The position numbers and the translations under genes were made by a program. Positions 5,109-64,000 of a stretch of 64,000 bases of DNA are shown in pieces. Numbering within the stretch: position 1 is the first letter of the stretch; each line of letters begins with the position of its first letter. This DNA comes from Thermoanaerobaculia bacterium (lineage in GTDB: Bacteria; Acidobacteriota; Thermoanaerobaculia; UBA5066): contig CAWFJJ010000028.1 of the NCBI GenBank assembly GCA_963816185.1, forward strand, positions 416,001-480,000. Reading direction: 5' to 3'. The notes beneath the pieces were generated by a model. That model saw only the letters and a program-made list of their open reading frames with translations, did not search any database and was not told the DNA's origin.

Positions 5109-6389
5109 ATGAGAGCGCTCTTCCGGGGTGACGGTTGGGGACTGGGAGAGAGGAGAGGACCGGGGACCGGGGATTTCTTAGAAAGAGAAGAACCGGGGAA
5201 AGAGATCTTCTTAGAAGGTGAAGAGAGGGTCATTTGCGCCGAGAGGCTGGAGCAGCTGCCCGACATGCTCGCCTCGCTCGACGAAATCGCATCGTCGGGC
5301 GATTTGAACCTGATCGCAGCGGGGTTCGTCTCCTACGAGGCGGGCGTTTACCTCGAAGGATCGACGGCGCTCGCGCGCCGGCATGAATTTCTTCCTTTCG
5401 CGGAATTCTTCCTCTTCGATACCCGCCGCTCCGGCGCCGCACGACGCATGTCGCCGCCTCCCGCCGCTTCCGCCCCATTCACCTTCGAAGAATCGGTACG
5501 CGCGGAGCGCGTGTTCTTTTCGGACCCTTCGGCTCGCGAAACGGAGCCGTCGCTATGCCCGGACGCGTGGAGAAACGGAGTAGACGCCATCCGGGACGCC
5601 ATCGCCCGCGGCGACGTCTATCAGGTCAACCTCACGCGCCGCACGCGCTTCGCGGCCCGCGTCGAGCCCTTCGCCCTCGCGCGCGCCCTCTACGGCGACA
5701 GCCCCGTGCCCTTCGCCGTGACGCTCGTCGGGAACGAGTGGGCCGTCGTGTCGAATTCGCCGGAGCTCTTTCTCGACGTGGACCTTGCGGCGCGCCGCGC
5801 GGTCACCAAGCCGATCAAGGGCACGATCGCGCGGGGCGCGACCGACGCCGAGGACGCCGGCCGGCGCCGCGAGCTCCTGGCCTCCGCGAAGGATGCGGCC
5901 GAGAACGTGATGATCGTGGACCTTCTGAGAAACGACCTCGGCAAGGTGGCTGAGAGAGGGCGCGTCGAGACGACCGCCATGAGATCGTTGAAGTCGTTCC
6001 GCCATCTCCATCACCTCGAATCCACGGTGGAGGCCAGCTTGAAGCCGGACGCCCGGCTCTCCGACGTCCTCCGCGCCACGTTGCCGGGGGGCTCGATCAC
6101 GGGTGCCCCGAAGCGCGCGGCGCTGCGTTTCATCCACGACCTCGAGAACGTGCCGCGCGGCGCGTATTGCGGGGCCGCGGGGTTCGTCCGTGGCGACGGC
6201 CGGGCGGTCTTCAACGTGGCAATCCGGACGGCGATCCTCGGTCGGGATACAGTGGACTACCACGCAGGAGGCGGAATCGTGTGGGACTCGAACGCGGAGG
6301 CCGAATGGCGCGAGACGAAGGCGAAGTCCCGGGAGTTTGGGGCGGCGATGGCGGCCCTCGGCGCGGGCGAGGTGCCCCATGAACCTTGA
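5109..6389 (+). CDS. pabB: Aminodeoxychorismate synthase component I / anthranilate synthase family
   Basis: GDVYQVNL, SNSPELFL, TKPIKGT, KDAAENVMIVDLLRNDLGKV, PGGSITGAPK, AGGGIVWDS. Confidence 0.85.
   Translation: MRALFRGDGWGLGERRGPGTGDFLEREEPGKEIFLEGEERVICAERLEQLPDMLASLDEIASSGDLNLIAAGFVSYEAGVYLEGSTALARRHEFLPFAEFFLFDTRRSGAARRMSPPPAASAPFTFEESVRAERVFFSDPSARETEPSLCPDAWRNGVDAIRDAIARGDVYQVNLTRRTRFAARVEPFALARALYGDSPVPFAVTLVGNEWAVVSNSPELFLDVDLAARRAVTKPIKGTIARGATDAEDAGRRRELLASAKDAAENVMIVDLLRNDLGKVAERGRVETTAMRSLKSFRHLHHLESTVEASLKPDARLSDVLRATLPGGSITGAPKRAALRFIHDLENVPRGAYCGAAGFVRGDGRAVFNVAIRTAILGRDTVDYHAGGGIVWDSNAEAEWRETKAKSREFGAAMAALGAGEVPHEP
5165..5229 (+). repeat. Two tandem copies of the TTCTTAGAA repeat inside the pabB 5' end
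   Basis: TTCTTAGAA at 5175 and 5208. AGAGATCTTCTTAGAAGG at 5201 is the exact reverse complement of the copy near 63675. Confidence 0.75.
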
Positions 6390-7170
6390 GTACGCGCCGG
6401 TCCCGTTCCTCTCGCCCGCCGTCCAGCGGGGCTTCGGCTTCTTCGAGACGGCGCTTCTGGCGGGCCGGCGCGCCGTGCTGTGGGAACCGCACCTCGACCG
6501 GATGCAGCGCATCCTCACGAGGCTCGATCTCCCGAAGCCCTCGCGCGAGCGGCTGAACGACGTCGCGAAGCGCGCGCTCGACGCGTCGGCCGCAAAACCG
6601 GCGGAGCAGCGCGCATTGCGCCTCACGTGGTTCGCCGTGGGCGACGACCTCGACGATCCGGCGTCGTACCGTCTCGAGGCGCACCTCCTGCCGATTCCGG
6701 AGAGCCGCCTCGCCCGCCGGAAGGGCTCGCACTGCGTTTCGCTGCCGCTGGAGCTCCAGCGCGACACGCCGGGCGTGAAGTCCACGAGCTATTTCGCCGC
6801 GATGCAGGGAGGACGTCTCGCAAAGAAGGCCGGAGGGGACGAGGGGCTGTTCCGCTCTCCGGACGGGAGCTATCTCGAGGGCACGACGACGGGCCTCGCG
6901 GCGTGGAACGGAGGGACGCCCGTGCTCGCGCCGAAGGGAGTCCTCCCGAGTGTGACGGCCGCCGCCTTTTTCGGCGGCAAGGCCGCCACGGCAGCCCTGA
7001 GCGCGGAGAAGCTCCGCGAAGGATCCATCCTCCTCGGCTCTCTGACCATGGCGACGCCGATCCTTACGCTCGACGGGGTGCCGTGCGCCCGGCCACCCGA
7101 AATGCTCGCGCGCATCGCGGAGTTCAATCGGCGCCTGCTGCAGGATCCGGCCTTTGGCACGGAGCTCTAG
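6379..7170 (+). CDS. Class IV aminotransferase / 4-amino-4-deoxychorismate lyase-like
   Basis: GFGFFET, HLDRM, PLP lysine in VKSTSY, DEGLF..YLEGTT, GVLPSVT; follows pabB. Confidence 0.8.
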   Translation: MNLEYAPVPFLSPAVQRGFGFFETALLAGRRAVLWEPHLDRMQRILTRLDLPKPSRERLNDVAKRALDASAAKPAEQRALRLTWFAVGDDLDDPASYRLEAHLLPIPESRLARRKGSHCVSLPLELQRDTPGVKSTSYFAAMQGGRLAKKAGGDEGLFRSPDGSYLEGTTTGLAAWNGGTPVLAPKGVLPSVTAAAFFGGKAATAALSAEKLREGSILLGSLTMATPILTLDGVPCARPPEMLARIAEFNRRLLQDPAFGTEL

Positions 7171-7192
7171 CACGGACTAAACTTTCATCCTT

Positions 7193-62177: not shown

Positions 62178-63521
62178 TCAGGTCCCCTCTTCCCACCCAG
62201 CCAGATATTTCTCCTGCTCCTTCGTGAGGACGTCGATCGCGATGCCCATCGAGGCGAGTTTGAGGCGCGCGATCTCGGCGTCGATGGCCGCGGGAATGGA
62301 GTGGACCTTGTTCCCGAGCGTCGCGTGGTTCCTGACCATGAATTCGGCGCCCAGGGCCTGATTCGCGAAAGACATGTCCATCACCGACGCCGGGTGGCCT
62401 TCGGCGGCCGCGAGGTTGATGAGGCGGCCGTCTCCGAGCAGGAAGATCGTGCGGTCGTCCTTGAGGCGGAACTCCTCGACGAACTCGCGGATCATGCGGC
62501 GCGACGAAGCCCGCTTTTCGAGCGACGGGATGTCGATTTCGACGTTGAAGTGGCCCGAGTTCGCGATGACCGCGCCGGACTTCATCACGGCGAAGTGCCC
62601 GTCCGAGAGCACGCTCTTGTTGCCCGTCACGGTGACGAAGATGTCTCCGATCTCCGCGGCCTCGGACATCGGCATCACGCGGAAGCCGTCCATCGCGGCC
62701 TCGATCGCGCGAACCGGGTTGATCTCCGTGACGATCACGTTCGCGCCGAGGCCCTTCGCCCGCATCGCGACGCCCTTGCCGCACCAGCCGTAGCCCGCCA
62801 CGACGAGGTTGAGGCCGGCGATGAGGAGATTCGTCGCGCGGATGATGCCGTCGATCGTGGACTGGCCCGTGCCGTACCGGTTGTCGAAGAAATGCTTCGT
62901 CTCCGCGTCGTTCACGGCGACGACCGGGAACTTGAGGACGCCCTCCTTCTCCATGGCCTTGAGGCGGATGACGCCCGTCGTCGTCTCTTCGGTTCCGCCG
63001 ATGATCCCTTCGAGAAGGGCCTTCCGCTCGGCGGCGGAAAGGGCCCGCGCCCAGGCCGCGAGGGAGGGCTCGAGCTGCCCTTCCTTGCCGAGGGCGATGA
63101 AAAGGAGAGACGACACGAGGTCCGCGCCGTCGTCCATCGTCATGTTCGGCTTGTGCTGGAGCGCGGCCTGAATGTGCGCGTAGTACGTCTGGTTGTCCTC
63201 GCCTTTGATCGCGTACGTCGAGATTCCGAATTCGGCCACGAGCGCGGCAGCCACGTCGTCCTGCGTGGAAAGGGGGTTCGAAGCGCAGAGGACGACGTCG
63301 GCGCCGCCCGCCTTCAGCGCGCGCGCAAGGTTCCCCGTTTCGGTCGTGACGTGGAGGCACGCCGACAGCCGAATGCCGGCGAGCGGTTTTTCCCTTTCGA
63401 AGCGTTCGCGGATCCGGGCGAGAACGGGCATCGAGCGATCGGCCCATTCCATGCGGAGCCGACCCTTGCCGGCGAGAGAGAGGTCCTTCACGTCGTGGGC
63501 GGGGAGGCTTGAAACAGTCAT
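62178..63521 (-). CDS. ahcY: Adenosylhomocysteinase
   Basis: [62 protein letters not shown]. Confidence 0.97.
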
Positions 63522-63569
63522 TTGAAACTCCCTTTCGAGCATCAATCAGGAAACATCAGTCAGCGAGCG

Positions 63570-64000
63570 TCAATCAGAGTGTCGGGTCCGAAGAGGACCC
63601 TTCTTCGAATGGTGAATAGGGCTGGGCGCCGCCGGGGCCTTGCTCGTCGGAGCCGGGCTTGCCGAAATCTCTTTCCTTCTAAGAAGATCTCTCGTGGTCT
63701 CTCGTCTTCGTCCGCCGTCCCGGACGGCGTCGACGATGTACGTGGCAAGAGCGACCTCCCCGGAGACCGTGGAGACCCGGTAGGGAGCAAATGCCGAGAA
63801 GCGCGCATCGGCGAAGCCTGCGCGCCCGAGGCCGCCGCGAATGGTCTCGCGCGGCAGTCCGAGGTGCTGCGCGCCGGTCACGGCGCGCAGCGCACGCAGG
63901 CCGTGGGGCTCGAGCTCGACGAGGACCACGCGACCGCCCGGCTTCATCGTGCGCCCGAGCTCCGCGAGCGCGTCCGCCGGCCGGACGAGATGCCGGAGAA
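63570..64000 (-). CDS. C-terminal part of a class I SAM methyltransferase domain (possibly an ArsR-methyltransferase regulator upstream of ahcY)
   Basis: ALAELGRTMKPGGRVVLVEL..HLGL..AGF; truncated by the window end. Confidence 0.65.
   Translation of the reverse strand, partial: LRHLVRPADALAELGRTMKPGGRVVLVELEPHGLRALRAVTGAQHLGLPRETIRGGLGRAGFADARFSAFAPYRVSTVSGEVALATYIVDAVRDGGRRRETTRDLLRRKEISASPAPTSKAPAAPSPIHHSKKGPLRTRHSD
63590..63712. repeat. Inverted repeat pair inside the 3' end of the methyltransferase gene
   Basis: TTCTTCGAA 63601 and TTCTAAGAA 63677. Confidence 0.7.

Follow-up and report, generated by a model that had tools for sequence, protein, structure and literature searches.

The stretch of DNA analysed here, a window of 64 kb from a Thermoanaerobaculia bacterium (positions 416001-480000 of contig C28 in genome G000), carries many copies of a short AT-rich motif which is dispersed over the whole genome, mostly in inverted pairs. 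The shared arms of these pairs are their sole conserved part, are the same at hundreds of loci and are conserved well above neutral sites. The motif is confined to one Thermoanaerobaculia genus. The conserved and orientation-locked arms, the arbitrary spacers between them, the origin of arms in place within genes, the restriction to one genus and the preference for DNA within a single transcript suggest a sequence-specific recognition of the arm. As the best explanation we tentatively propose, with slightly less than even confidence, a genus-specific paired recognition signal whose sites are selected or kept by drive and are read by a putative sequence-specific factor.

Short dispersed repeats are usually filed as repetitive extragenic palindromic (REP) sequences or as miniature inverted-repeat transposable elements, or MITEs, and are credited to a transposase. 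The motif shows the doublet demography of REPINs (REP doublets forming hairpins) without the machinery that defines them. A sequence-specific process, either selection in favour of a bound factor or a drive by conversion, would have shaped about 450 loci per genome in an uncultured soil genus. Literature searches with motif words or with taxon and repeat terms, supplements excluded, found no description of the motif; the listed word matches, for example STAT sites and primers, were unrelated.

Abundance and architecture of the motif

The word TTCTWAGAA occurs in 13 exact copies in the window, compared with 0.05 copies expected from 100 dinucleotide shuffles (maximum 1, none reaching 13). All 13 positions of TTCTTAGAA or TTCTAAGAA listed in the original prediction, a note made from the letters of the window, were confirmed. 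The eleven variants named there (23663, 23729, 34441, 34541, 34631, 36156, 36234, 40859, 55576, 62140 and 63601) scored at least 14 bits with a 28-nt matrix, which was built and refined from the genome's own sites with the reversed genome as control. The core spacings given for the pairs were likewise correct, namely 66 bp (23663/23729), 68 bp (57079/57147), 74 bp (18362/18436), 76 bp (63601/63677), 83 bp (55493/55576), 100 bp (34441/34541) and 108 bp (62032/62140). The proposed consensus with its CT-rich tail matches the profile of all 337 genomic copies, and the high G+C content claimed for the window (about 69%) agrees with the 0.62-0.72 measured per 2 kb. The matrix scan added sites that had been overlooked (36071, 25308/25490, 5397, 5484, 11420 and 40158), and the location of the copies in recG (20196/20368) and yicC (34441-34631) inside open reading frames (ORFs) had also gone unnoticed.

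The assembly of G000 comprises 5.09 Mb in 30 contigs and is 94.9% complete. It contains 337 exact cores, 172 reading TTCTAAGAA and 165 reading TTCTTAGAA. At a threshold of 16 bits the matrix recovered 907 sites in the genome versus 216 in the reversed genome, and at 18 bits 845 versus 145. The mean density is about one site per 5.6 kb; with 30 sites in 64 kb compared with 907 in 5.09 Mb, the window reaches about 2.6 times this mean.

The original prediction had speculated that the motif might organise the replication terminus in the manner of matS and be bound by the ParB encoded in the window. The window adjoins the turning point of the GC skew of C28, holds a second parAB locus and has the raised site density just mentioned. 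Sites were found, however, on every large contig, and the densest 50-kb bins lie elsewhere, at C28:0-50 kb (37 sites) and at the end of C1 (28 sites). MatP (PF06303) had no match in the genome, the site is asymmetric, and both ParB paralogues are also present in four sister genera that lack the motif. The sites of matS are far fewer than those of this motif. The speculation did not stand up to these observations, and a matS-like role can hardly be credited.

Oriented on TTCTAAGAA, the 337 copies share a head that is rich in C and spans about -19 to -1 (92% have C at -2), the core, an A at +9 (71%) and, after the core, a tail of 20-30 nt of C and T in which G remains below 10-20%. The matrix scan recovered the core variants TTCTAAGAA (331), TTCGAAGAA (216) and TTCAAAGAA (51), indicating that the word is CYTTC-K-AAGAA-A and no true palindrome. 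The arm is asymmetric beyond its 9-bp quasi-palindrome, and even the latter is broken in the second commonest core, TTCGAAGAA.

Neighbouring sites obey a single rule of arrangement. The heads point inward and the tails outward in 287 pairs at distances of up to 200 bp (threshold 14), versus 7 pairs in the opposite arrangement. Of 995 sites, 608 (61%) lie within a head-to-head pair of up to 250 bp, and clusters follow the pattern (-)n(+)m, with '-+' in 190 cases, '-++' in 36, '--+' in 34 and '+-' in 3. The start-to-start spacing sets in at about 64-68 bp, has its mode at 75-78 bp and tails off up to 250 bp; measured between cores, spacers have a minimum of about 55 bp and are most commonly 66-69 bp long. 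A helical phasing of 10.5 bp was not detected in the pair spacing, in which long-period power reflects the shape of the peak. Strict singles, 152 in number, have a degenerate partner on their head side: the mean best opposite-strand score was -0.6 there versus -8.2 on the tail side (p 4e-13), and 21% versus 2% of these singles reached 8 bits for an opposite-strand partner. The pair thus appears to be the basic unit.

The spacers within the pairs had been described as unrelated to each other, and this holds true genome-wide. Among 269 spacers, 221 have no relative among the other spacers and 227 have no second copy anywhere in the genome; on the latter count, captured DNA was rejected as their source. 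Unit lengths lie between 65 and 250 bp. Two kinds of spacer are not unique, namely 19 spacers that form a family and lie in paralogous genes, and a separate palindromic repeat of about 150 bp. A set of paralogous genes of about 920 codons is located at C24:602898-633465 and in about 12 other places. These genes have an internal position in common, 730-800 nt after the start, at which a motif pair with a spacing of 93 bp occurs, and their spacers are 78-100% identical. The repeat of about 150 bp is structured, with two GC-rich palindromes, and has no match in Rfam. Its 46 merged genomic copies include those at window positions 23745-23890 and about 25330-25480 and at C14:32939-33164, C24:151949-152171 and C25:104916-105125. 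An arm in the expected orientation lies within 200 bp of 28 of the 46 copies, so the repeat is often found between the heads of a pair.

Hairpins had been noted in several spacers. This is true for some of them but is not a general property, as the spacers (71% G+C) had a mean fold z-score of -0.41, compared with +0.06 for nearby control segments, and 9% versus 4% scored below -2. The two partners of a pair showed no specific complementarity (tail duplex -17.2 versus -16.3 kcal/mol with shuffled partners; anchored identity 0.315 versus 0.314) and no covariation at any of the 28 positions (odds ratio 1.6 for the T/G core variant, p 0.12). An element defined by a hairpin was rejected on the basis of these null results and of spacer folds that barely surpass shuffled sequences.

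Occurrence and turnover among relatives

The relatives of the ScpA protein encoded in the window come from metagenome-assembled genomes labelled Thermoanaerobaculia or Acidobacteriota. The 11-mer CYTTCTAAGAA was present in all 24 congeners with 50-329 copies per genome (4-19 for the reversed word as control) and had 0-2 copies in 16 genomes from two other families. The 13-mer CCTTCTAAGAAAT occurred in 21-80 copies in all 11 genomes of the genus (control 0), in none of 6 genomes from four sister genera of the same family and in 1 of 134 genomes from the other families of the class. The counts outside the genus take in two genomes flagged as unpublished, G025 and G030, and the conclusion is independent of both. 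Within the genus, copy number differs about six-fold. The motif represents a sharp metagenome marker for the genus; in a search of sequencing runs, parts of the region were found in soil metagenome and metatranscriptome contigs only. These contigs stem from relatives and do not reveal RNA ends, and the low coverage of positions 20010-20611 carries no weight as evidence. The pattern of the head-to-head pair gave 0 matches in IMG/VR, a result without evidential weight in either direction.

The syntenic 64 kb of five congeners were aligned with the window, and 56-61 kb were alignable. In 150 site-by-genome comparisons, an arm in the same orientation was present in 109 cases, absent in 37 and rearranged in 4; some orthologous intervals are wide, and a few of the arms called present may be non-orthologous. 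Twelve of the 30 window sites are kept in all five congeners. At aligned positions, the identity to the congeners was 0.879, 0.920 and 0.676 for codon positions 1, 2 and 3, respectively. Non-coding heads, cores and tails reached 0.795, 0.871 and 0.827, coding cores 0.917 and spacers 0.737.

Absences usually take out whole units. The interval upstream of the RNase P RNA measures 124-138 nt with the unit versus 1-17 nt in three genomes (G011, G003 and G014), and metagenomic contigs of relatives link position 18343 to 18479 with 12 nt between them. Upstream of the MiaB-like gene, 219-299 nt are present here versus 4-62 nt in the same three genomes, and the interval upstream of ahcY comprises 213-218 nt with the unit versus 43-49 nt in four genomes. 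In metagenomic contigs from relatives, 25319/25324 is followed by 25537/25538, so that the pair at 25287..25520 is skipped. At the trpS-scpA junction, inspected by eye in 24 listed relatives, members of the same genus had 10 empty sites, 5 single arms and 1 pair, and the 8 more distant relatives had no arm.

The comparison of orthologous loci proposed in the original prediction thus revealed empty sites, but no target duplication was observed at four filled/empty alignments with the five congeners. Two alleles of G003 are deletion remnants. The one before the MiaB-like gene consists of a tail remnant joined at a 4-nt microhomology, GAAT, and the one at the lptF/G-ahcY junction has fused tails. 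In G011, the lptF/G-ahcY junction (the orthologue of window positions 61990-62180, loci L119-L122) contains a 1.3-kb insertion with its own inverted ends, in the place taken by the motif pair in the other genomes.

A selfish, non-autonomous element of the REPIN or MITE type, in which the doublet is moved in trans and has no function for the host, would account for many of these observations. As a REPIN-like or MITE-like family had been one reading in the original prediction, the resemblance deserves a closer comparison. The population structure is REPIN-like, with 61% of the sites in inverted doublets and a mode of 75-78 bp. Singles resemble decayed doublets, orthologous sites either have or lack a whole unit, copy number varies six-fold, the occurrence is restricted to one genus, and a true repeat of about 150 bp is nested between arms. 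For Pseudomonas fluorescens SBW25, Bertels and Rainey report that 61% of REPs form doublets, of which 93% are inverted, with a distance of 71 bp and a spacer less conserved than the ends. With REPINs and bacterial interspersed mosaic elements (BIMEs), the motif has in common the hundreds of lineage-specific copies, the inverted doublets about 70-80 bp apart, the better conservation of the ends than of the spacer, singlets that are decayed doublets, the excision of whole units and the location in transcribed, non-promoter DNA.

The enzymatic part of such a system is, however, missing. REPINs are mobilised by REP-associated tyrosine transposases (RAYTs), and no Y1/RAYT was found in G000 or in 25 of 29 genus genomes. 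The RAYT family PF01797 had 0 matches in G000, with a control that was positive in 6 of 14 genomes; the weak matches in 4 of the 29 genus genomes have inconsistent motif flanks, and the RAYT flanked by the motif that the original prediction envisaged was not recovered. A RAYT-mobilised REPIN was rejected for this reason and in view of non-palindromic arms, the lack of compensatory changes and the copies inside ORFs. Unlike REPINs, the motif also has unrelated spacers of variable length, and its copies in ORFs were made by substitution. The element would have to be moved by an enzyme other than a RAYT.

Inverted ends, intergenic copies as well as intragenic copies in permissive regions of proteins, and presence/absence polymorphism are shared with MITEs, of which the neisserial Correia elements and the Rickettsia palindromic elements are comparable on these points. 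Intragenic small repeats are also mentioned by Delihas. In contrast to MITEs, the motif has no conserved interior, no defined length and no target-site duplication. A classical MITE was rejected in view of these differences. Of 23 arm pairs spaced 261-4000 bp apart, 6 were inspected; the longest ORFs between their arms were housekeeping-like and nothing resembled a transposase (judged by eye, with no family search). An insertion sequence (IS) with these ends, or a parent IS, was not seen between these longer pairs.

Further observations argue against transposition of the doublet in general. Spacers are unique in 227 of 269 cases and vary in length from 65 to 250 bp, and the partners do not covary. 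The polymorphisms that can be polarised, i.e. the two G003 remnants, are deletions. In recG and glmU, arms arose by substitution without insertion and are held genus-wide, for which selfish transposition offers no explanation. Altogether, we regard a selfish mobile element as a rather unlikely source of the motif.

Gene context and candidate functions

Among the 57 ORFs scanned in the window, 52 were confirmed by Pfam and five had no match; 55 lie on the plus strand. None matched a transposase family, in agreement with the earlier statement that the window lacks a transposase. Genome-wide gene contexts were obtained with our own codon-usage strand caller, which, tested on segments of Pfam-supported genes, made 179 confident calls, of which 166 were correct. 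Transcription of the tail-side gene leads away from the site in 262 cases and faces it in 286, indicating that site orientation is unrelated to transcription. Singles between two called genes were found 27 times in one sense and 16 times in the other, without significant bias. Of 100 pairs with both flanks called, 91 had co-directional, 6 convergent and 3 divergent flanks; a crude background of gene junctions gave 72/14/14%, respectively, and gaps of at least 120 bp gave 62/11/27%. As many as 29 of the 91 co-directional pairs lie inside one open frame common to both flanks. Units are placed where a single transcript runs across them, at junctions within operons and in linkers and loops encoded by ORFs, and seldom occupy divergent promoter regions.

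These contexts bear on a possible role as a promoter, in which TAAGAA would be the -10-like element, or as an intrinsic bidirectional terminator. Some plus arms are located 32-38 nt before starts, namely those of scpA, the RNase P RNA and possibly the MiaB-like gene, and GC hairpins are present in some spacers. For a promoter, however, the tail-side gene should not be opposed as often as co-directional, and more than 3 of 100 pairs would be expected in divergent regions. The profile contains no -35/-10 signal at a fixed distance, the motif is absent from sister genera, and relatives lack the unit upstream of the RNase P RNA. As for a terminator, the spacers are unstructured as a class and no U-tract follows, the tails being mixtures of C and T and not U-runs. 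Both functions are considered very improbable.

Sites are depleted from ORFs, yet not excluded: a strict intragenic test was passed by 166 of 905 sites, compared with 865 of 2000 random positions. A figure of 97% non-coding, obtained from the codon score at exact cores, is overstated because the motif itself depresses this score; the recG copies were counted as non-coding by it. By coordinates, the gene of an E2 acyltransferase has arms in both inter-domain linkers, and other arms fall within the match envelopes of an aspartokinase and of DapB. Since the purine tails are free of stop codons, ORFs run open through them, which leads to annotation errors. In this manner asd, lysC and dapB fuse into a frame of 1087 codons (C28:31503-34766).

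The arms within recG and glmU bear on the origin of intragenic copies. In 25 recG genes of the genus, the first site reads TTCTTAGAA in 15 and TTCTTTGAA in 4. At the second site, C-TTC-TAAGA is kept in 22 of 25 with the rare codons CTT-CTA-AGA, and adjacent synonymous sites vary. In three genomes of the genus a fresh tandem copy stands beside a decayed one. The recG of a sister genus has ordinary GC-rich codons instead; the second arm differs by substitutions alone at equal length, and the stretch of the first arm is four codons shorter. The glmU pair, which has a spacing of 90 bp, can be aligned gap-free with two sister genera and differs from them by clustered substitutions in both arms; the first arm is common to a congener. 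This alignment shows that arms can arise in place and in the right geometry without an insertion.

Such a creation inside genes, at tolerant positions and by codon and residue changes, would also be expected of a self-recognition word that is kept by drive through a receptor or a repair bias, like DNA uptake sequences (DUS) or the highly iterated palindrome HIP1. The motif is a lineage-specific and hyper-abundant word on both strands and occurs also in coding DNA. Findlay and Redfield describe an accumulation of uptake sequences in coding DNA at poorly constrained positions via codon and residue changes. The competence genes comEC and dprA are present in the genome, but they were also positive in 10 and 11 of 14 control genomes, respectively, and their presence therefore says little. 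Drive on a single word predicts neither the head-to-head geometry nor the minimum spacing of about 65 bp nor the depletion from divergent regions. The density of about one site per 5.6 kb is also well under that of known uptake sequences (1,471-1,892 per genome). With the DUS of Neisseriaceae and the uptake signal sequences (USS) of Pasteurellaceae, the motif shares the lineage-specific over-representation on both strands. It differs in being much sparser, mostly outside ORFs and flanked by long pyrimidine stretches, and its obligatory head-to-head pairs, with a spacing of at least about 65 bp, are unlike the adjacent stem-loops of DUS and USS. According to Xu et al., HIP1 sites (GCGATCGC) of cyanobacteria are conserved within and between ORFs, and their function was long unknown. 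HIP1 is, like the motif, a hyper-abundant and taxon-specific word; unlike the asymmetric, paired motif of a single genus, it is a short perfect palindrome, tied to methyltransferases and phylum-wide. Drive on a self-recognition word is thus an improbable explanation.

A further candidate is an element acting at the RNA level, in which the purine and pyrimidine arms form a stem in polycistronic transcripts and serve as a processing or stability site or mask a tract for Rho. The almost complete confinement of the pairs to co-directional, co-transcribed contexts (91 of 100) and the occurrence of the purine-first order only would be in line with this function, and Rho is encoded in the genome. Purine and pyrimidine tails pair at about -17 kcal/mol irrespective of the units they come from, so that an RNA element would not require covariation. 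In minimum free energy (MFE) folds, the arms were paired with each other in 5 of 6 window units. The z-scores of the whole units were weak, however (-3.3, -0.7, -1.7, -1.5, +0.7 and +0.2), and in about 40% of the pairs the most frequent core variants are mismatched, without any deficit. Structure alone leaves the very specific core unexplained, as well as the retention of intragenic copies, where cleavage would destroy the mRNA. Singles have no significant bias relative to flanking genes (27 versus 16). An RNA-level element therefore seems quite unlikely.

Compared with these alternatives, the paired protein-binding signal that the original prediction had offered as its second reading fits better, judged from arms that are conserved above neutral sites and were created in situ inside recG and glmU. 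None of the compared systems unites strict paired geometry, unrelated interiors, a missing cognate transposase and the convergent recoding of conserved genes. Under the proposed recognition signal, a putative genus-specific factor other than a RAYT would recognise the arm and act on head-to-head pairs, and selection or a conversion-type drive linked to this factor would keep the sites. The spacer would be whatever DNA happened to lie there. Owing to the purine-then-pyrimidine polarity, a crossing transcript or a single strand could fold the arms into a long imperfect stem; such foldable single-stranded units would explain the clean deletion of whole units. The pyrimidine-first order would expose a tract resembling a Rho-loading site, possibly the reason why it is not tolerated. 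Candidate roles of the putative factor are boundary formation or insulation of co-transcribed DNA, topology, recombination and self-recognition. If found, the factor would provide a handle on the marking and insulation of operon interiors and on the birth and decay of such signals.

Several points weigh against a recognition signal. Individual units are dispensable, with 37 absences in 150 comparisons, even in the closest relatives, and together with the six-fold copy variation this fits a selfish or decaying element equally well. About 60% of the non-coding arm positions did not align, and the conservation figures thus describe the retained subset in BLAST-aligned stretches. Around a quarter of the matrix sites may be false, as estimated from the reversed genome, and the gene contexts are based on our own codon-usage caller and not on curated annotation. 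Contact between proteins across a loop might predict a helical periodicity, which is missing. The sole candidate factor raised, the ParB of the window, occurs in motif-free sister genera as well.

A more far-reaching version of the proposal is a chromosome-wide 'bracket code', a paired signal selected by the host in which the putative genus-specific factor would mark boundaries inside co-transcribed DNA. RecG, GlmU and the E2 linkers would have been recoded for it by rare codons and residue changes. Its origin would date to the base of the genus, where a now extinct mobile element may have been domesticated. For such a sequence-specific organiser within operons no counterpart is known. We consider this version unlikely in its full extent. 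The readings overlap, as an extinct mobile element domesticated at the genus root would unite a recognition signal with a mobile origin.

Sites and other features of the window

The sites detected in the window are listed below; pairs and clusters comprise arms on both strands.

5154..5228, minus strand: two tandem arms with cores at 5175-5183 and 5208-5216 (31.7 and 35.0 bits); the tails point toward the start of a thioesterase gene (4664-5083, minus strand), and an orthologous arm is present in 5 of 5 congeners.
5385..5514, plus strand: two sites (5397 and 5484) inside the gene of a chorismate-binding enzyme.
11420 (in uvrC) and 40158: low-scoring intragenic sites; these and the sites at 5397 and 5484 may partly be chance or protein-driven matches.
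18341..18466, both strands: head-to-head unit with a minus core at 18362-18370 and a plus core at 18436-18444, 74 bp apart, between a gene end (18342) and the RNase P RNA (18483-18880); absent from G011, G003 and G014, present in G019 and G044; arms paired in the MFE fold, z -3.3.
20175..20398, both strands: recG pair within the ORF at 19764-21947, present in 5 of 5 congeners; the minus core at 20196-20204 is read as F-L-E, and the plus core at 20368-20376 lies within H-L-L-R-N.
23642..23930, both strands: composite between trpS (end at 23625) and scpA (start at 23942), with the pair 23663(-)/23729(+), a nested palindromic repeat of about 150 bp (about 23745-23890) and an extra plus arm (23900-23908) that precedes the ATG by 33 nt.
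25287..25520, both strands: weak pair of 25308 (minus) and 25490 (plus), 17.8 and 17.9 bits, enclosing a copy of the palindromic repeat of about 150 bp; between scpB and a pseudouridine synthase gene.
34420..34661, both strands: three sites of the TTCGAAGAA type, 34441(-), 34541(+) and 34631(+), inside a yicC-like ORF (34157-35035); the two plus sites occur in 5 of 5 congeners, with protein-level and DNA-level constraint inseparable there.
36050..36264, both strands: cluster of the pattern - + + (36071, 36156 and 36234) between rpoZ (35693-35923) and a gene of the uracil-DNA glycosylase (UDG) family (36291-36869).
40847..40889, plus strand: single arm with the core variant TTCTCAGAA at 40859 (26.5 bits), beside the start of a methyltransferase gene encoded on the minus strand; found in 5 of 5 congeners.
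55472..55714, both strands: cluster of the pattern - + + (55493, 55576 and 55684) flanked by the end of a gene (55466) and by the MiaB-like gene, for which a possible GTG start lies at 55725, 32 nt past the last core.
57058..57177, both strands: pair 57079(-)/57147(+) with a spacing of 68 bp, located where the MiaB-like ORF ends; found in 5 of 5 congeners; arms paired in the MFE fold, z -1.5.
62011..62170, both strands: pair 62032(-)/62140(+), flanked by lptF/G and the minus-strand ahcY, which converge here and end at 61992 and 62178, respectively.
63580..63707, both strands: pair 63601(-)/63677(+) upstream of ahcY (start at 63491); among the five congeners present only in G003.

The MiaB-like ORF (55725-57152) extends for 31 codons beyond the TRAM domain and across the motif unit; its stop is the TAA of the plus core (57150-57152). 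In the whole window, RNase P RNA alone reached the threshold of the Rfam scan. The cumulative GC skew of C28 peaks at about 400-420 kb, shortly ahead of the window, whose genes are almost all on the plus strand. The parA-parB genes at 57886-59503 constitute a second locus for partition; the ParB with the best score is encoded together with dnaA at C29:112441-121114. A 72-nt direct repeat of 94% identity was found at 40915-40986 and 42235-42306, 1320 bp apart. Its second copy covers the start of accA, and the first copy is accordingly a duplicated 5' end of accA. The two repeats bracket a 1.3-kb segment with an unannotated ORF resembling a membrane protein.

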